Shown in pieces: positions 748-9,379 of a stretch of 40,529 nucleotides of DNA. The translations under genes and the position numbers were made by a program. The notes beneath the pieces are model-generated. The model worked only from the letters and a program-made list of their open reading frames with translations. It ran no database searches and had not been told where the DNA came from. Source of the DNA: Candidatus Thorarchaeota archaeon (lineage in GTDB: Archaea; Asgardarchaeota; Thorarchaeia; Thorarchaeales; Thorarchaeaceae); assembly GCA_046482545.1 (NCBI GenBank), contig JAWOEX010000036.1, positions 1-40,529 on the forward strand. Reading direction: 5' to 3'. Position 1 is the stretch's first letter. Each line of letters begins with the position of its first letter.

Positions 748-1896
748 TTATATGAGTTTCACATCATCTTCTCTTGCTTTCTCTTGGATATACTGGATGT
801 AGAACTCTTTGAGCTCGGAAAGGGGCATTCCAAATGCTTTGAACGCTTCCAGTTCTCCTTTCCGACGTTTTTTGATTAACACATCGTTTTCGTGGCTAAG
901 CAGGTCATTTTCTTTGATTGCAGGTATCCCCTTATTCTGACGTGCACAACGCAAATCGGATTTAGACATTGGTTCAAGCGTGTGCTCGATTGATGCGAGA
1001 AGGCCGTCATCGCTCCAGAAATCACTAGTTGTCAAGCCAATGAGTCTGGCATCTGGAGCTGCTAGACCTTGAATATTCGCCAGTTCTATACTATTGCTCT
1101 GAATCGTTGAGAATATTCGGAGAGACCACGGAGACATATCTACAAGAACCAATATCGGAATTTCTTCTTGTGAGAGCTTACGTATCCAGGCTCGCATATT
1201 ACGTCCTGGCTGTCCGAAAAGTGCGCCTACCCCAATCCCAATCTCTTCGGGAATGCCTAGCTCTATAATGTTTCGGGCCATTGCTTCCTTTTCCACAAAA
1301 ACGGCGGCTTGGATATTCATGTCATAGATTTGAACTTCTGAAGGTCGTGAAGATATGAACCAGCCATATTCACCAGCAGCATCGCACTTGATCTTCTTAC
1401 CAGACAGGTCAGAGAGAGTAACATCACCATAGAAGGTGCCTTTGGGTGAACTTACGACACCAAATTCTTCACGGGGAACAGAGTGACCATTCCTTCGTAG
1501 AATTCTCTCACAGAGCTTGATTATACGATTGGTCTCGTTTTGACTTCCGATTTTCAGGACCTGCTTCACTTCTTTGACTTTGTGCATGTAATAGAAGTCT
1601 CGCAAGCTCATTGACATGCCCTGTTCAAGATGTTCCTTAAATCTGGAAAGGCCGTACGTTAGGCCTGCAATCATCTTGGCGCTTTTCACTTTTCGACCGT
1701 CCATATATGAAGGCGAGTCATCTACGTGTTTATACCCAGACCCAGGGTCGTATGCTACGTTCGACTTGGAAGAGGCATAGTAACCAATCTCTGGAAAGAA
1801 ACCATCATTTAGGGTCTCGGATATTGTTTTGAGCACATGGTCGATAAGTGGAACCACATCATCGGGGTTCCGTATTTCCGTTGTGGACTGAGTCAC
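748..1896 (-). CDS. top6A: DNA topoisomerase VI subunit A (Spo11 family)
   Basis: SLRDFYY catalytic-Tyr motif, Toprim FVEKEA, GQP.RNMR, C-terminal KGELEA; 4-bp overlap with top6B. Confidence 0.9.
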   Translation of the reverse strand: MTQSTTEIRNPDDVVPLIDHVLKTISETLNDGFFPEIGYYASSKSNVAYDPGSGYKHVDDSPSYMDGRKVKSAKMIAGLTYGLSRFKEHLEQGMSMSLRDFYYMHKVKEVKQVLKIGSQNETNRIIKLCERILRRNGHSVPREEFGVVSSPKGTFYGDVTLSDLSGKKIKCDAAGEYGWFISSRPSEVQIYDMNIQAAVFVEKEAMARNIIELGIPEEIGIGVGALFGQPGRNMRAWIRKLSQEEIPILVLVDMSPWSLRIFSTIQSNSIELANIQGLAAPDARLIGLTTSDFWSDDGLLASIEHTLEPMSKSDLRCARQNKGIPAIKENDLLSHENDVLIKKRRKGELEAFKAFGMPLSELKEFYIQYIQEKAREDDVKLI

Positions 1897-3431
1897 TGCA
1901 TCTCCCTCCCATCAGGAAAGAGAGCATCAATTGCTACATTCTGTCCTGTAGATTCTGTCAGTGTTTTCGATATGAATCTATAGTACTGCTTCAATTTGCT
2001 TTTTCTACGGCGCTTCTTCCGCGCTCTATGTTTCTTTCTGACTTTGGTTGCTATTTCTCGAAGACACTGCTTGAATCCAAGGTCAATCTCACGCCTGATA
2101 CTATCCACATTACCGATGTATTCCTTGCCAACTGTCTTGTATGGAATCCGCGTCGAACATATGTGCGTGAAGAATGCAAGTTTGTCTTGGTCATCTAGAT
2201 CATAGTTTCCAAGGTTTAGGTCTCGCATCACCTTGTTCGATACGTCGGAACCCTCATCATACAGAAGGGGTATTCGGTTTGCAAAGCGGTATAGCGTTAG
2301 CCCTTCTTCTATCTCCCCTCCGTAAGCAACACCAATTTCGACTATGAAGGGATGTCCTTCGTAGACACTAGGTTTTCGCTGACAAACTGCAAAGAACTGC
2401 GGTGAGAGTCTCTGAATCCCTGAAGAGAGAACATCTTCACCAGCCGGAGAGAGAGCCGAAGCTGAAGGGGGGAGAAAACCCTCAAAGGAATCTATCCCTC
2501 GCATGAGACGTTTGAGTTCAATAGTTGTTAGATTCGATGGTTTCCTTTCAGCATCCAGACCACAGTGATTGAGAAGATTCTCTGATGTGATTTTTCCTAC
2601 TCGATGAAACGCACTTCTCATGAACCCTGCTAGTGTTCTGTTTTCCGCTTTATCGAGCATCTTTTTGAGCATTTCAAGGTCGATACCCTCCGGATGCGGT
2701 TTCATTTCTGAAGGGACCGTTGGCAATGAACTGGTTACCCGTTTGAATACTAATTGCTCTTGGTCGGGGTTGTAGAATGTTAATGAGGCATAGGGAGCAA
2801 TAATGCTAGTCTGTTTGAAATAATCGATAATTCTCCTTTTACTTCTCAACCAGTCACCTTTGAGATGATATGAAATTGTGGTGCCGTGCCGTGCCTGTTT
2901 CTTTTCGTAATCAGTTTCTTCAAGAATTATAGGTTCATTCGCTTCGATATCAAGCTGCAATACAAGCTTATGCCCCATAGCTTCTCCATGCTGCTCTGTC
3001 TTGACTTCTATGGGGTTCTGTGTGGTGATTTGTCCGTAGAGGAGAGCTAGGGCTCCCCCGAGACCAAATGTTCCCCGGCTTTGTCTTTGTGTATATTTTG
3101 TACCCGTTAGCATCTTCCCAAGCAACTTAGGTGCGTTCTCAGGACAAATTCCCGTTCCATTATCTTGAACGGTTAGGCAATAAAGCTGAGGTCCGGCTGC
3201 GAAAAGATCTTCGTCATCGTCTAGCGAGCTTTCTCTCCGAAGTGATACTGATATATCTGGAAGCACTCTGGCCTCTTCGCACGCATCAAGAGCGTTCTCA
3301 ACGAGCTCTCTGACTGAAACATAGAGCGACCGTGCGGGATTATCGAACCCGGCGATTGTGCGGTTGCGATAGAACCAAGCGGAGACTGATAACTCCTCTA
3401 AGCTCGAGTCTGTGCTGCCAGTGGATAGCAT
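1893..3431 (-). CDS. top6B: DNA topoisomerase VI subunit B
   Basis: GHKL motifs ELVENALDA, DNGTGI and QSRGTFGLG; KPHPEG, H2TH segment, transducer RFANRIPLLYD and KTVGKE. Confidence 0.96.
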   Translation of the reverse strand: MLSTGSTDSSLEELSVSAWFYRNRTIAGFDNPARSLYVSVRELVENALDACEEARVLPDISVSLRRESSLDDDEDLFAAGPQLYCLTVQDNGTGICPENAPKLLGKMLTGTKYTQRQSRGTFGLGGALALLYGQITTQNPIEVKTEQHGEAMGHKLVLQLDIEANEPIILEETDYEKKQARHGTTISYHLKGDWLRSKRRIIDYFKQTSIIAPYASLTFYNPDQEQLVFKRVTSSLPTVPSEMKPHPEGIDLEMLKKMLDKAENRTLAGFMRSAFHRVGKITSENLLNHCGLDAERKPSNLTTIELKRLMRGIDSFEGFLPPSASALSPAGEDVLSSGIQRLSPQFFAVCQRKPSVYEGHPFIVEIGVAYGGEIEEGLTLYRFANRIPLLYDEGSDVSNKVMRDLNLGNYDLDDQDKLAFFTHICSTRIPYKTVGKEYIGNVDSIRREIDLGFKQCLREIATKVRKKHRARKKRRRKSKLKQYYRFISKTLTESTGQNVAIDALFPDGREMQ

Positions 3432-3502
3432 AGTGTTCTTTCACCTAGCTTACAGCTCCTGTGAGGTGTCGATTACCTATGAAGCGTGGTATTATCCCCA
3501 CA

Positions 3503-4378
3503 TCATAATAATGGCAAGCCGAAGTATAGGAATACTAAGAGTGCAGCTAATCCTACCACCTGAAGCCCCCACACTTTCTTGTTCCAGCGCAGGACAGTTC
3601 CACCATCGAATGGTTGAACCGGTATCATATTGAATAGTCCCAGTACGGCATTAAGCATTAATCCAAATCTAATGATTTGATTTATTGGATAGACGAAAAA
3701 ACCCAAAACCGATGAAAGGGCTGCTACACCGACGATAATCAAACCCATAATAAAATTGGATAATGGCCCAGCTAAGTTAGCCTTCCCATGTTCTTCGAGT
3801 GTCGCCCTTCCTCTGGTCATCACCGCCCCTGTGCCAAATACTGGAAATCGAAACAGTATAGCCATAGCAGAGAGTAAGTATCCATATGTGGTCATCCTGA
3901 ATTCGCTCCACATTCCAAAACTCTGAGCGGTGAATTTGTGTGCCAACTCGTGTACCATGAATGCAGTAAGAAACAAAACGATAGTTGCCACTGGATACCA
4001 CCAGTAGGGTGAGAACAGCATAGCTATTCCTCCGATTATGGGAGTAGATCCGGTTAGTGACAAACCCACAAGAACAACCAAAGCCGAAGCAATGAGTAAG
4101 TCTCTGATTTCTCTTTTAGAAAAGCGACCTGTCTTTCTCTTTGGTAGTTTTGAGGTGAGCTTTGGAAGAAGTGAAATCGATAGTTGTTCGCTTTGGTTGG
4201 ACTTTGCCTCTTTCGGCGCTTGTGGCCTGATCCGTTTTTCTCGAGCACGTTCGTGTACCTCTTGCATTGCAGGGCAATTATGATTCTCTGGTAATCTATG
4301 GTCTGCACAGAATGGCTTGTTACAATAGGGACAAGTGAAACAGAGATCTTCTTTGCCGCAGAGAGAGCAACGAGTCAT
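3503..4378 (-). CDS. AN1-type zinc finger fused to M50 (site-2 protease family) intramembrane metalloprotease
   Basis: N-terminal CSLCGK..CPYCNKPFCADHRLPENHNC (AN1); HELAH, AGPLSN and NMIPVQPFDG motifs; several TM helices. Confidence 0.9.
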   Translation of the reverse strand: MTRCSLCGKEDLCFTCPYCNKPFCADHRLPENHNCPAMQEVHERAREKRIRPQAPKEAKSNQSEQLSISLLPKLTSKLPKRKTGRFSKREIRDLLIASALVVLVGLSLTGSTPIIGGIAMLFSPYWWYPVATIVLFLTAFMVHELAHKFTAQSFGMWSEFRMTTYGYLLSAMAILFRFPVFGTGAVMTRGRATLEEHGKANLAGPLSNFIMGLIIVGVAALSSVLGFFVYPINQIIRFGLMLNAVLGLFNMIPVQPFDGGTVLRWNKKVWGLQVVGLAALLVFLYFGLPLL

Positions 4379-4475
4379 GATAGGATCCAGAGGTGGAAAG
4401 ATTGAATCTTCATATTTACATATGCATTGTGGCGATATACTTCTTTCTGAATAACATGTTTCTTACAGTTGAGTG

Positions 4476-4876
4476 AGTGAACCCAACTGAGGAACTCCTG
4501 TGTTCCACCCCTCGCCTGCCCAGCGTCACCACCATAGGGGCGCTATACCCGGCCAAGCAAGGGCTTTGACCGCCATCATCAGGAAACGGTCCCTCCTTCG
4601 GCTTCTGTATCCTGTCCGGTTCCAAGCACATCACGCCCGGGGGCAGCAAGGTTTTCCACAGCTTTTGCCACGGCGGGGTTATTATCGCTCGGTCCAGTCT
4701 CGTCGCCGAAGCTGGACAGGTCCAATTAAACAAAGCGAACAGCCGCGGACTCTCCAGAGCTCGATAAAGTTCCTTGTTTGGAGAGTGAGGACTTCTGCTT
4801 AGTGGAAAAAGTCCACCTCACAGCTTTCGGCCGCGTGCGTCACGCTACAGCGCTAGCCCACTTGCCTAGTCCTACT
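4476..4876 (-). ncRNA. Large structured non-coding RNA (~400 nt), family unresolved (SRP-Alu-like 5' end, loosely RNase P-like 3' half)
   Basis: GC-rich island with at least 10 helices found by hand; most G-U pairs work on the minus strand; 5' and 3' ends can pair (4868-4876 with 4476-4483); TATA-like TTTATTAG about 25 nt upstream. Confidence 0.7.
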
Positions 4877-4898
4877 AGACTGCATTCTCGCACTAGAC

Positions 4899-4914
4899 CT
4901 AATAAACCGTCCTT
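4899..4914 (-). promoter_or_regulatory. Putative BRE/TATA promoter of the structured RNA
   Basis: Minus strand reads aaggacgg-TTTATTAG, about 25 bp upstream of the predicted RNA 5' end. Confidence 0.45.
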
Positions 4915-5090
4915 ATCTGTGGCCAAGAGAGAGTTGCAGGAATTCTTACAGAAATTTTACACTTCTATGCGCCGATTTATTTAGGATTCTGTAAGATTTC
5001 TAATACTCTGGATGCTTTAAGGAAAGGCTTAAGTTTATGCCCTGCCGCGCTCAGTTCGGTTGTTGACTAACCTTACTGGAGTCAATCGAA

Positions 5091-6488
5091 GTGGACTTTG
5101 ATGTCGCTATTGTAGGAAGCGGCCCCGCCGGTATATTCTGTGCTTTGGAGCTACTAAGAAACAGACCAGAGCTTAAGGTCAAGATACTGGAACGTGGAAA
5201 ACCAATCGAGGAAAGACAATGTCCAAATTCTACTGCTGCACGAGGTTGTAAGAAATGTCAGCCCTGCCAGATTCTCGCAGGGTGGGGTGGGGCAGGAGCA
5301 TTCTCCGACGGAAAGCTTACGATATCACCCAGAGTAGGAGGCTGGCTTGATGAGATAGTTGGCGTGGATCGCTTGAATAGTCTCATCAATTATGTGGAGG
5401 ATATATATCTCGAGCATGGTGCTCCGGAAGAAACCTATGGCAGCAACCATGACAAGATAGAGGAATATTCCAGAAAAGCAGCTTTGGCAGGAATGGAACT
5501 GATTCCGCAGCAAATACGACATATGGGTCGAGAAGGCTGCATCGATGTTATGAGCAGTATGTATCACGAGATTTTAGACAACGCCGAAATCAGTTTCAGG
5601 ACTGAAGCTAAGGAGTTGTTGGTTGAGGATTCTCGGGTTGTAGGAATTGAAGCTGATGATGGTAACGAACTTGTGCGGGCGAGGTACGTAGTCGCCGCAC
5701 CTGGAAGGGTTGGCAACGAATGGCTTTCAAATCAGGCTGATAGATTTCCTTCCCTCCATACAGATAGCAACTACGTGGATATCGGCCTACGGGTAGAAAT
5801 CCCAGCTCCTGTAATGGAAGATATTGCCGAGGCGCTCTATGAGCCCAAATTAATATACTACAGCAAACAGTTTGATGACAAGGTCAGGCTTTTCTGCTTT
5901 AATCCGCGTGGCTATGTCACCACAGAATACTATGATGAAATCCTTACCGTAAACGGTCAATCATTTGCAAACAAGAAGACCAGCAGCTCAAATTTTGCTC
6001 TCCTTGTCTCAACCAAGTTCACAGCACCATTCAATGAACCAATCGAGTATGGTAGGTCTATAGCTAGGCTCGCCAACATGCTTGGAGACGGAGTCCTTGT
6101 ACAGCGTCTTTCTGACCTCCGACGTGGAAAACGGAGTACACAAGAGAGGCTCTCCCGGACACCTGTCAACCCTACGCTTCCCAGTGCTTGCCCTGGTGAC
6201 CTAAGCTTTGCGCTGCCCTACCGGCATCTAAGCTCCATAATGGAGATGTTGGATGCGTTGGATGAACTATGTCCTGGTGTTGCCCGAGACGGTACCCTGT
6301 TATATGGCGTGGAAGTGAAATTCTATTCTTCGCGTATAGGTGTCGATGAATCACTGGAGACAAAAGTTGAGAATCTGTACGCCATCGGGGACGGAGCAGG
6401 CATAACAAGAGGTTTGATGCAATCCTCAGTATCCGGCGTTATTGCAGCAAGGGATATTCTTGCCAAAGAAGGGATAAATGCTGGTTGA
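5091..6488 (+). CDS. FAD-dependent oxidoreductase (COG2509-like)
   Basis: VAIVGSGPAG Rossmann motif, Cys cluster C..CKKCQPC, GWGGAGAFSDGKL, C-terminal YAIGDGAGITRG. Confidence 0.9.
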   Translation: MDFDVAIVGSGPAGIFCALELLRNRPELKVKILERGKPIEERQCPNSTAARGCKKCQPCQILAGWGGAGAFSDGKLTISPRVGGWLDEIVGVDRLNSLINYVEDIYLEHGAPEETYGSNHDKIEEYSRKAALAGMELIPQQIRHMGREGCIDVMSSMYHEILDNAEISFRTEAKELLVEDSRVVGIEADDGNELVRARYVVAAPGRVGNEWLSNQADRFPSLHTDSNYVDIGLRVEIPAPVMEDIAEALYEPKLIYYSKQFDDKVRLFCFNPRGYVTTEYYDEILTVNGQSFANKKTSSSNFALLVSTKFTAPFNEPIEYGRSIARLANMLGDGVLVQRLSDLRRGKRSTQERLSRTPVNPTLPSACPGDLSFALPYRHLSSIMEMLDALDELCPGVARDGTLLYGVEVKFYSSRIGVDESLETKVENLYAIGDGAGITRGLMQSSVSGVIAARDILAKEGINAG

Positions 6489-6580
6489 TAGATGATTCAA
6501 TGTAAGCAGCTTTCTATTCTAAATGGCCGATCAGAATTCGAAGCCATTACTCTTACAAAATAAGGTTACACATCCTAATC

Positions 6581-6629
6581 TTTATATATCTAGGGACTAG
6601 TTGGTACTATAGTAATAATTGGTCCCTAG
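6581..6629 (+). promoter_or_regulatory. TATA box followed by an inverted repeat (candidate operator) upstream of hsp20-cdc48
   Basis: TTTATATA at 6581-6588; CTAGGGACTAGTT (6590-6602) and AATTGGTCCCTAG (6617-6629) form an 11/13 inverted repeat. Confidence 0.5.
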
Positions 6630-6727
6630 TTGACCAAATTGCAAACATACAGAAAACGAAGTCCCATTGGTGACTCTTAGGGCGGCACAATGCCGCCCGG
6701 GACTTCACTAGATGGGAGGAATGTATT

Positions 6728-7171
6728 ATGACAAATATTGATGATGATTTCGATGCGCTAGTCCGCGAGATGCTTCGGAGGTTCTTCTCCGGTTCATCGG
6801 CGTTCGGACCCATGATGGGCGAAATACACCGCATACGTCCTGAATCAGGCGAAGGTGAGGTTCCTGGCGTGAAGGAACCTAGTGATGAAGAACAGCATGT
6901 GGAGCGCATTGACCTTGATGATAGAATTATTATTGTAATAGATGGATGTAGAGATAGCGATAATCCTGAAGCTCGTATTGAAGGGAGAGAAGTTGAAGTC
7001 GCTTTGAATGAGACTGCTTCGGATATCCACGATTTCGAAGCACCCTTCGCTGTTGATATAGATAAATCAACTATGACATTTCGAAATGGGATTGTTGAGA
7101 TTACTCTGGTCAAATCAGGGAGTGAAGATACCTCCTCTGACTTCAACGAGGGGCTCCTCAGACCAGAATAG
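6728..7171 (+). CDS. hsp20: Small heat-shock protein (Hsp20/alpha-crystallin-like)
   Basis: N-terminal DDFD..REM.RRFF and C-terminal STMTFRNGIVEITLVK; sits directly upstream of cdc48, a common archaeal arrangement. Confidence 0.75.
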   Translation: MTNIDDDFDALVREMLRRFFSGSSAFGPMMGEIHRIRPESGEGEVPGVKEPSDEEQHVERIDLDDRIIIVIDGCRDSDNPEARIEGREVEVALNETASDIHDFEAPFAVDIDKSTMTFRNGIVEITLVKSGSEDTSSDFNEGLLRPE

Positions 7172-7189
7172 AGGGAGATGTGAGAAATA

Positions 7190-9379
7190 ATGTCAGAAGA
7201 TGATAAAGTTAAGCTAAAAGTAGCAGCTGCTATGCCGAAAGACCAAGGACGTGGCATAGTCAGATTGAATTCAACGATAAGACGGGATTTGGGTCTTCGT
7301 TCAGGAGACTATGTTCTTATCAAAGGGGACAAGGAAACCGTTGCCGTAGTTTGGCCTGCTCTGCAAGAAGATGAAGTACTTGAGATGATACGCATGGACG
7401 GTCTCATACGCAAGAATGCTGGAGCTAAGCTGGGTGAGGTTATTGAGCTCCAGAAAATCGATCCTCCTGATGCGACCCGAGTCGTATTAGCTCCAAGCCA
7501 GCCAATCCGTTTCCGCGGTGGTTTTGAGACGTATCTCAAAAAGCAGATTCTCAACAAACCGCTTACCCGTGGAGATGTGCTCATGGTTGCTTCCATAGGT
7601 TCTGGTTTGAACTTCCATGTAACGGCGGTATCACCGAGTAAGCATGTCAAAGTTCAGCGACAGACGAAAGTCGAAATAAGAACTAAGCCTGTCAAGCCAG
7701 AGGATACACAGGTTCCTCAAGTAACATACGAGGATATCGGCGGCCTGTCAAAGGAACTGCAGAAGATTAGAGAAATGGTAGAGCTTCCAATGAAGTCGCC
7801 TGACCTATTCAAAAGGCTAGGAATTGAACCACCCAAAGGGGTATTTCTCAGAGGCCCGCCTGGAACGGGAAAAACTCTCATTGCGAAGGCTGTTGCAAAT
7901 GAATCCGGCGCGAATTTCCAGGCTATTAACGGGCCAGAGATCATGTCGAAGTTCTACGGTGAATCTGAGCAGAAGCTTCGTGAGGTATTTGAGGAAGCAG
8001 AGAAAAACGCTCCGAGCATTATATTCATTGATGAGATTGACAGCATCGCGCCCAAGAGAGCTGAAGTCACGGGTGAAGTTGAGAGGCGAGTAGTTGCCCA
8101 ACTCCTGTCTCTGATGGATGGTCTGGAAGGTCGCGGTCAAGTGATTGTCATTGGAGCCACTAACCGCCCTGATGATGTAGATGAAGCACTCAGAAGGCCA
8201 GGTCGATTCGATCGCGAAATCCACATTGGTATCCCAGATAAACAGGGTAGATTGGAGATTCTTCAGATTCACACACGGGGTATGCCTCTCGAAGAGAAGC
8301 TTGAGTTAGAAAGATTTGCAAATGCTACCCATGGATTTGTCGGCGCTGATTTGGAATCCTTAGCTAGAGAAGCTGCAATGCATGCTCTAAGGCGGGTTCT
8401 CCCACATGTAGACCCGGAGACAGGTGACATTCCTGCAGACATTTTGAACGACCTATATGTTACACAAGAGGATTTCGAAATGGCTATGTCTGAGGTTTCG
8501 CCATCTGCGCTACGTGAAGTCATGGTTGAATCACCGAACGTGCGATGGGATGATATCGGTGGTCTAGAGCATGTCAAGAGCAGGCTAAGAGAAGCAGTTG
8601 AGGCACCTCTGAACCATCCTGACGTATTTGAAGAAATGGGTATTCGTACACCTAAAGGTGTGCTTCTGTTTGGCCCTCCTGGAACTGGTAAGACCCTTCT
8701 TGCGAAGGCGGTTGCCACTGAAAGCGAGGCTAATTTCATTTCAATCAAAGGCCCAGAGATTTTCAACAAGTATGTTGGAGAGTCCGAGAAAGCAGTACGT
8801 GAGATCTTCAAGAAAGCCCGACAAACTGCACCGTGTGTGCTTTTCTTTGATGAAATTGATGCTGTGATGGGCCACAGGAGTATGCGGGATGAAACAGGTG
8901 TTAGCAAACGGATTGTTAACCAGTTCCTTGCAGAGCTCGATGGTATGCAGTCACTTCAGAATGTCTTGGTTGTTGGCGCAACAAACCGAGCAGATATCCT
9001 CGATCCAGCAGTATTGAGACCTGGAAGATTCGATTCGGTGGTATTTGTTCCACCTCCTGATGAGGACGCTCGTGTTGAGATATTCGAGGTTCACACCAGG
9101 GATATGCCGTTGGCTGAAGATATTGACCTCCGCCAGCTTGCGAAGGACACAGAAGGTTTCTCCGGTGCAGATATCGAAGGTCTATGCAGAGAAGCGGCTA
9201 TGACTGCCGTCAGAGAAGACTGGAAGGCTAAGCCTGTAAAAATGGAGCATTTCAAGAGTGCCATGGATGAGGTTAAGCCAAGCATCTCTGTAGAAGACAA
9301 GGAAAGGTACAAGTCTCAGGCAGAGCGTGTGCTCCGAAGAGCACCGAAGCGCGAAGAAAAATTGTCGGGCTATGTATAA
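7190..9379 (+). CDS. cdc48: Cdc48/p97/VAT family AAA+ ATPase
   Basis: N domain plus two AAA modules (GPPGTGKT twice; FIDEID and FFDEID; RPGRFD twice); C-terminus ends in YV. Confidence 0.98.

Follow-up and report, generated by a model that had tools for sequence, protein, structure and literature searches.

The window, by which we mean the whole 40,529-nt stretch of a Candidatus Thorarchaeota contig (JAWOEX010000036.1), carries ordinary genes at positions 748-9379: topoisomerase VI subunits A and B, an AN1 zinc finger/M50 peptidase fusion, an FAD oxidoreductase, and CDC48. The short divergent promoter region that separates the AN1/M50 peptidase and FAD oxidoreductase genes is occupied by a 557-bp repeat on the minus strand (4451-5007), which may affect the expression of both neighbors. 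Repeat copies, sharp alignment boundaries, and an empty orthologous site mark it as a whole nonautonomous, MITE-like element, and it is very probably a protein-free deletion derivative of a Thorarchaeota aCas1-TnpB mobile element that carries the entire omega-RNA.

An initial DNA search recovered at least 10 copies here; 23 of the 36 genomes in the family had matches to the repeat, and no genome outside the family did. A profile search of this genome gave 105 matches, about half of them (some 50) near-complete and another 50 or so partial. Database homologues of its proteins carry the label Candidatus Thorarchaeota. In the alignments, conservation begins sharply at position 5007 and stops as sharply at 4451. 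Outside these limits lie the two copies of a 4-bp target duplication, CCAG on the left (5008-5011, minus strand) and, with one mismatch, TCAG on the right (4447-4450, minus strand), and a T-CNNG-A target site fits both junctions. Among 29 copies, the inner 4 nt were the same at both ends in 15, compared with a mean of 2.7 and a maximum of 8 in shuffles. Furthermore, the corresponding intergenic site is empty in two congeners, and deleting the element together with one 4-bp copy restores their spacing exactly. The left end (4940-5007, minus strand), which contains two TCTTACAG motifs inverted with respect to each other (4996-4989 and 4951-4944), is common to 8-kb aCas1-TnpB elements. A TTACA-type motif lies at a similar distance from either end of the mini-element, while reverse-complement local alignment for terminal inverted repeats did not exceed shuffles. 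The repeat is thus short, noncoding, and multicopy, has a target duplication, and shares its ends with a coding partner, as is expected of a MITE. The window copy is somewhat decayed, having a 7-nt deletion of one small helix, five of seven pairs in a pseudoknot described below, and the mismatched duplication. Elsewhere in this genome (C20:181318-182444 and C41:25041-25600), mini-elements stand back to back, one in or beside the left end of another, which suggests that element ends are preferred targets.

An earlier note on this DNA had read the minus strand from 4876 to 4476 as a multidomain structured RNA, perhaps a very divergent SRP or RNase P/MRP-like RNA or else an undescribed Asgard class. 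It was right that no known family is a clean fit: no Rfam model matched at its gathering score or at E values of up to 10. The housekeeping reading draws on 5′ hairpins that superficially resemble an Alu domain, and we give it practically no chance. Neither the SRP model (RF01857) nor the RNase P model with its P4 core (RF00373) matched, and the genome has canonical, single-copy genes for SRP RNA and RNase P RNA on contigs other than this one (C28:160542-160852, 103.5 bits, and C34:21067-21410, 156.5 bits, respectively), which removes both suggestions. Nor does the sequence behave like a single-copy gene at a conserved locus: it is present in about 100 dispersed copies, its site is empty in the two congeners, and it overlaps a tnpB frame. 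A broken, fossil frame of the TnpB C terminus runs over the RNA (4630-4873, minus strand), with 46% identity in tblastn to residues 422 to 541 of a full-length TnpB (P0001) and with stops. ARAGORN found nothing in the window. The sequence thus stems from the 3′ part of a tnpB gene and has become a dispersed repeat, and its RNA is the omega-RNA of a mobile element rather than a housekeeping RNA. The idea of an uncatalogued Asgard RNA survives in that form: a false SRP/RNase P candidate is removed, and an RNA family absent from Rfam is defined.

Taken alone, the window sequence folds no more stably than chance would allow (z = −1.54, with 7 of 100 shuffles equally stable), and the evidence for a structured RNA comes from its homologues. 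RNAalifold on 59 sequences returned 88 pairs, 66 of them with compensatory changes. Homology between the mini-element and tnpB loci begins sharply at 4873. These data bear out a conserved multidomain RNA on the minus strand with a start near 4876, and the complementary segments listed in the earlier note do occur where it placed them. About half of the helices drawn there are kept in homologues, namely, the 4816/4802 hairpin (92% canonical) and the 4786/4749 (91%), 4738/4685 (99%), and 4717/4692 (92%) stems; of domain 5, the inner 6 bp are kept (96%), the full 10-bp helix being canonical in just 60%. The others gave way to better-conserved alternatives: the terminal helix (72%), the indel-rich hairpins of domain 1 (57 to 67%), the outer helix of domain 2 (65%), and the helices of domain 4 (52 to 71%). 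Four conserved helices draw on the bases of the rejected ones: 4873-4868/4793-4788 (95%), 4748-4742/4674-4668 (99%), 4661-4657/4502-4498 (100%), and 4650-4642/4616-4609 (96%). Domain 6 was excluded because it overlaps the 4661-4657/4502-4498 helix. The 5′ end of the RNA could pair with the GTTCACTCA loop near the 3′ end, but this pairing did not covary (603 of 5,000 swaps were as good), so that the terminal helix of the earlier note was not adopted.

The 3′ boundary had been placed 25 nt too early, within a 557-bp repeat that had gone unnoticed. Bases 4676-4682 (minus strand) form the 5′ strand of a terminal pseudoknot whose partner is the final 7 nt of the element, with five of seven pairs retained in the window copy. 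A locus's own partner did better than swapped tails in 1,000 of 1,000 shuffles, and compensatory variants, several of them independent looking, occur in L022, L023, L010, L013, L026, L027, and L050. Because this pseudoknot recruits the last seven bases, the scaffold extends over about 425 nt (4451-4876, minus strand; 77 of 86 consensus pairs in the window copy) and finishes at the element end, which places the guide in flanking DNA. TnpB omega-RNAs usually measure about 150 to 250 nt, and the RNA described here is two to three times that length. It shares with the omega-RNA/reRNA of IS200/IS605 and IS607 elements the overlap with the tnpB 3′ end, the scaffold conserved up to the element end, and a predicted guide drawn from the 3′ flank. 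Unlike those elements, which have a Y1 or serine transposase and leave no target duplication, the full elements here have neither transposase and show a 4-bp duplication.

The loci L035 and L036 are 8.2- to 8.3-kb elements with the ends of the mini-element and matching duplications, and a congener has a 7.6-kb counterpart (L041). In all, aCas1-TnpB loci are present in 4 copies in this genome and occur in 45 of 81 genomes of the family. The only open reading frames in the full elements are those for TnpB, a giant protein, and at most one unnamed protein of 206 to 247 residues. TnpB has 544 to 560 residues and belongs to Pfam PF07282, its nearest solved structures are TnpB and Cas12f, and the last ~110 codons of its gene overlap the omega-RNA, which overlaps or follows the tnpB 3′ end in all full loci (L035-L080). 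Among 121 homologues, the RuvC-I Asp is kept in 114 and the RuvC-III Asp in 120; at the RuvC-II position, glycine stands instead of glutamate, and an alternative glutamate preceding the zinc finger is invariant (121 of 121). Such a rearrangement is considered compatible with activity (Altae-Tran et al. 2023, PMC10691335).

The giant protein has 1,400 to 1,900 residues where complete, and in 32 of 46 loci its gene lies upstream of tnpB in divergent orientation. We searched a model of its N-terminal domain (pLDDT, 86.5) against 48,161 solved chains and found that the top 12 were all Cas1 or casposase structures (Z, 9.6 to 13.5, with 11.6 for casposase 6opm), the next scoring 5.9. Foldseek by itself gave a weak signal, with Cas1 among the top five matches yet at an E value of about 0.1; a profile search against PDB sequences found no match to the giant protein, and the Pfam Cas1 family (PF01867) had none anywhere in this genome. 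The domain has invariant residues of a catalytic type (E76, H205, and D212/D215). Judged by this fold search, the N-terminal domain would adopt a Cas1 fold and is a putative integrase. By eye, residues 430 to 490 and 655 to 800 of the giant protein P0002 contain a PD-(D/E)XK-like motif and a degenerate P-loop/Walker-B-like segment, neither of which Pfam names. The designation aCas1 reportedly goes back to Makarova et al. 2020.

Because aCas1 is the sole recognizable integrase between the ends, and because the DDE elements of this genome end differently, it is likely that the aCas1 of the 8-kb elements mobilizes the mini-element in trans. The candidate set aside was DDE_Tnp_1, with four elements in the genome whose ends are unlike those of the mini-element. 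The predicted domain resembles casposon integrases in its Cas1 fold and its Glu, His, and Asp residues, and one subgroup of elements sits at tRNA genes, as casposons do. The elements differ from casposons in that TnpB is carried, no family B DNA polymerase frame was found in the complete elements L035, L036, and L041, and the duplication is 4 bp rather than 14 to 27 bp. The modeled domain, moreover, lacks the N-terminal beta domain and is fused to the PD-(D/E)XK-like and P-loop-like segments. We know of no casposon with a 4-bp duplication and weak inverted repeats.

Several features of individual elements were noted in passing. L036 is chimeric at 7324-9250, where its own aCas1 gene is followed by the 206-residue frame and by the tail and left end of an L035-type aCas1 gene. 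L035 has short tandem repeats in its divergent control region (2860-3370) and, ahead of aCas1, a 224-residue frame without a Pfam family (3367-4041) that recurs in L043 and L044. At L039 (9402-10307), a Lrp/AsnC-like helix-turn-helix start is in frame with the C-terminal half of TnpB, and the RNA follows. In L038 (10229-10303), L069, L052, L078, L070, L072, and L021, the element directly abuts tRNA-Gly(TCC); three of these (L069, L052, and L078) have a partial, decayed copy of the 3′ half of the tRNA just beyond the aCas1 stop (33 bp exact in L069), resembling an attachment site duplication, and aCas1 is the sole recognized integrase gene between the repeats. In L046, L054, L055, L053, L068, and L073, the sequence past the RNA end resembles the 5′ end of a tRNA in antisense and recurs by the aCas1 stop, as a 13- to 15-bp inverted copy in L046, L054, and L068 and a 22-bp direct copy in L053.

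Loci of this general type have been published: Altae-Tran et al. 2023 (PMC10691335) described aCas1-associated TnpB loci in Asgard archaea, Cas1H-Asgard-1 and -2, which have, as here, a TnpB beside a gene for a Cas1 fold, end repeats, and, downstream of tnpB, a conserved T, a hypervariable region, and the GTTCACTCA motif. The same succession is found in the window at 4494-4474. The main text of that account gives no RNA size or fold, protein-free copies, or leader unit, and it suggests that the hypervariable region is the guide. If so, the guide would precede GTTCACTCA and might even act like a bridge RNA against the element's own ends; in keeping with this, the commonest variant matches the TCTTACAG motif found at either end. 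We consider this reading highly improbable. The hypervariable stretch pairs with its own downstream arm (0 of 5,000 swaps as good), the pseudoknot carries the scaffold beyond it to the element end, and it pairs far better still with a unit of ~95 nt that is conserved in tnpB leaders and with which it covaries. Mean duplex energies were −24.7 kcal/mol with the cognate leader, −21.7 kcal/mol with swapped leaders (0 of 5,000), and −8 kcal/mol with the cis arm, in swap tests that, like those of the pseudoknot and of the leader repeat described below, do not remove relatedness among loci. Rare variants of the loop motif reappear in the cognate leader (L049, L077, and L078), and the window copy is predicted to form a duplex of −25 kcal/mol with the leaders of this genome.

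Thus, the published hypervariable region and the GTTCACTCA motif (4482-4474) together appear to form a tracr-like anti-repeat (4473-4495, minus strand). It is followed in cis by a repeat-like arm running to the right end of the element (4451-4472, minus strand), the final 7 nt of which (4457-4451) supply the pseudoknot with its 3′ strand. The predicted guide in cis (4431-4450, minus strand; its length is assumed) comes next, in host DNA of the AN1-M50 promoter region, so that its first bases are also those of the right target duplication. The position published as a guess for the guide of Asgard Cas1-TnpB elements would be revised accordingly, from the hypervariable region to the sequence after the terminal pseudoknot.

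The leader unit bears on the same question. Its end, like that of the element, is formed by the pseudoknot strand, and immediately after this strand comes a spacer of 11 to 17 nt that is, locus by locus, a copy of the TATA box region of tnpB about 95 nt upstream. It is here, and not in the hypervariable region, that a targeted spacer with an adjacent motif is found. The direct repeat was present in 34 of 39 loci, with an identity of 13.5/16 versus 9.4 when swapped (0 of 5,000) and a spacing of about 90 to 99 apart from one outlier at 125. TT(A/C)AT precedes the upstream copy, the counts at its successive positions being T29, T34, M34, A32, and T33 of 34. A blind search for the longest repeat in 20 further, more divergent loci found the same layout in 15, with the exact motif in 12 of these 15 and its last four bases in all 15. 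The four intact leader spacers of this genome (11 to 13 nt) each occur exactly twice in its 3 Mb. A solitary leader unit with no tnpB after it lies at C38:60479-60545; the genome contains one further 12-nt match to its spacer, and this match lacks the TT(A/C)AT motif.

A repeat of this kind could have arisen by target duplication or could serve as a tandem site for protein binding, in which case the window RNA would be an ordinary stand-alone, single-guide omega-RNA. Both copies do have a TATA-like core, and 12 to 15 bp is the length of a casposase duplication. This explanation nevertheless seems improbable to us. The copies are identical at locus-specific positions where swapped identity is 0.2 to 0.5; identity is near 1.0 over the 11 nt next to the motif and falls off unevenly beyond them, as in a seed; the second copy begins exactly past the pseudoknot strand; and the unit between the copies covaries with an RNA 1.6 kb away.

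The position of TT(A/C)AT suggests that it is the TAM of this TnpB, which is now testable. It resembles TnpB TAMs such as TTGAT. In known omega-RNA systems the TAM is the motif at the insertion site, and these elements depart from that rule: the insertion sites show T-CNNG-A, TT(A/C)AT was not found 5′ of them, and the empty allele lacks it at the adjacent position. A second departure from known TnpB omega-RNAs is that a separate crRNA-like partner would also be accepted. Because the insertion sites lack TT(A/C)AT, flank guides would rarely be productive on empty alleles, and the usual role of TnpB in cutting empty alleles or homing does not fit.

Taken together, these observations support an explanation that we hold to be probable as a whole. 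The mini-element would move in trans, by means of the giant Cas1-fold protein, into T-CNNG-A sites with a 4-bp duplication, and its omega-RNA would serve TnpB as a tracr-like scaffold, with a 3′ anti-repeat that has two possible partners. One is in cis, where the arm and the terminal pseudoknot strand of the omega-RNA itself would yield a single guide taken from the flanking DNA. The other is in trans, where the crRNA-like leader unit would supply the repeat, the same pseudoknot strand, and the spacer of 11 to 17 nt, which is identical to the TATA box region of the divergent tnpB/aCas1 promoter, beside TT(A/C)AT. With a match this short, binding without cutting should result, that is, RNA-guided autorepression, and on the sequence relationships described above we judge it quite probable that the leader guide represses the tnpB/aCas1 promoter in this way.

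Autoregulatory guides are known from CRISPR systems, namely, CreR/crlRNA of Cas12a and tracr-L of Cas9 (bioRxiv 10.1101/2024.10.29.618823 and 10.1101/2024.01.11.575229), and CreR-type RNAs have been shown to make Cas12a bind without cutting. Repression by the short guides of Cas12a CreR/Cracr is relieved by nontargeting RNAs that sequester the effector (bioRxiv 10.1101/2024.10.29.618823). The leader unit resembles CreR and tracr-L in being a single repeat-like unit with a match of 10 to 17 nt to the promoter of the effector beside a PAM-like motif. It differs in that the effector is the TnpB of a transposon without a CRISPR array and in that the unit lies in the tnpB leader and would require the omega-RNA as a tracr-like scaffold. 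As in type V CRISPR-Cas, an anti-repeat in the scaffold would pair with a separate repeat-spacer RNA, a likeness that covariation indicates; unlike in type V, there is one repeat unit per tnpB, and neither this genome nor the retrieved loci contained CRISPR-like arrays of the leader repeat.

The mini-copies have a candidate promoter. A predicted TATA box, TTTATTA, lies at 4900-4906 (minus strand), −34 to −28 from the conserved start of the RNA, and predicts a start near 4876. Across 33 copies, each of its positions is 79 to 94% conserved, and the adjacent spacer positions are variable. It belongs to the mini-elements only, as it was not found in the autonomous tnpB loci searched. A scan for sigma-70 promoters and terminators, whose models do not cover archaeal promoters, returned nothing. 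We infer that the TATA box was gained and is placed to transcribe the omega-RNA. The old tnpB frame has early stops in 30 of 35 mini-copies. Near-neighbor mini-copies differ by 44 substitutions in 171 paired columns, 33 of which keep pairing, and by 179 in 211 unpaired columns, so that paired columns are hit about threefold less, with no significant codon bias. Part of this apparent selection could be inherited from unsampled coding parents. Of 86 consensus pairs, mini-copies keep a mean of 77.7 and tnpB loci 81.6, the window copy having 77.

These figures bear on whether the mini-copies do anything. They might be inert relics, MITEs formed by internal deletion that inherited the fold from their parent and are neither transcribed nor used. 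The right end needed for mobility sits inside the RNA, so that part of the RNA must be kept in any case; about 50 copies are partial, mini-copies have fewer consensus pairs than tnpB loci do, and the adjacent motif is absent at flank guides. The dominant form, however, retains the RNA starting exactly at its 5′ boundary, preceded at a constant distance by a new TATA box, and substitutions avoid paired columns and mostly keep the pairing. We think inert relics unlikely, and from these sequence comparisons it seems rather likely that mini-copies are transcribed and bound by TnpB.

Stand-alone omega-RNA copies act in trans, according to Altae-Tran et al. 2023 (PMC10691335), who also give their role as unknown. 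With about 50 of them in one genome, we can offer a concrete hypothesis. Of 49 copies with an intact 3′ end, including two full elements, 35 have lost the leader-pairing loop and kept the cis hairpin, while the window copy is among the 14 that retain the loop. Transcripts of the mini-copies would load TnpB with guides mostly lacking the adjacent motif and would divert it from the repressing guide, which would raise expression of the integrase on which the mini-copies depend. That such titration of TnpB is the selected role of the mini-copies is the least certain part of the explanation, a tentative proposal argued by analogy. Their RNA may also be an ordinary stand-alone omega-RNA with occasional useful guides.

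A TnpB that neighbors a Cas1 and whose RNA by nature takes up a separate repeat-spacer RNA would be the type of intermediate proposed between transposon nucleases and tracr-dependent Cas12. We raise as a speculative, rather doubtful idea that the elements are an array-less proto-type V system on a transposon, with a Cas1-fold integrase, an apparently active TnpB, and a 425-nt tracrRNA for interchangeable guides, in which a leader mini-guide represses the shared promoter and promoter-bearing, RNA-only mini-elements have evolved to titrate TnpB and so switch the integrase on. Stand-alone omega-RNAs and Asgard aCas1-TnpB loci as such were already published. The searchable literature yielded nothing on the size and fold of this omega-RNA, on the promoter-bearing mini-element, on the reading as an anti-repeat, or on the leader guide. 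It contained no paper linking TnpB with autorepression or linking Thorarchaeota with either TnpB or casposons, and it leaves most subscription papers outside its coverage.

More distant TnpB homologues, with 35 to 39% identity, occur in another Asgard family (L100-L119). No match to aCas1 was found within about 3 kb of them, and they lack the leader repeat; we therefore do not extend the split guide to them. They occur alone and in multiple copies, with apparent terminal inverted repeats, and by eye their RNA terminates in a motif complementary to an upstream AUGAGU, an analogous terminal pairing.
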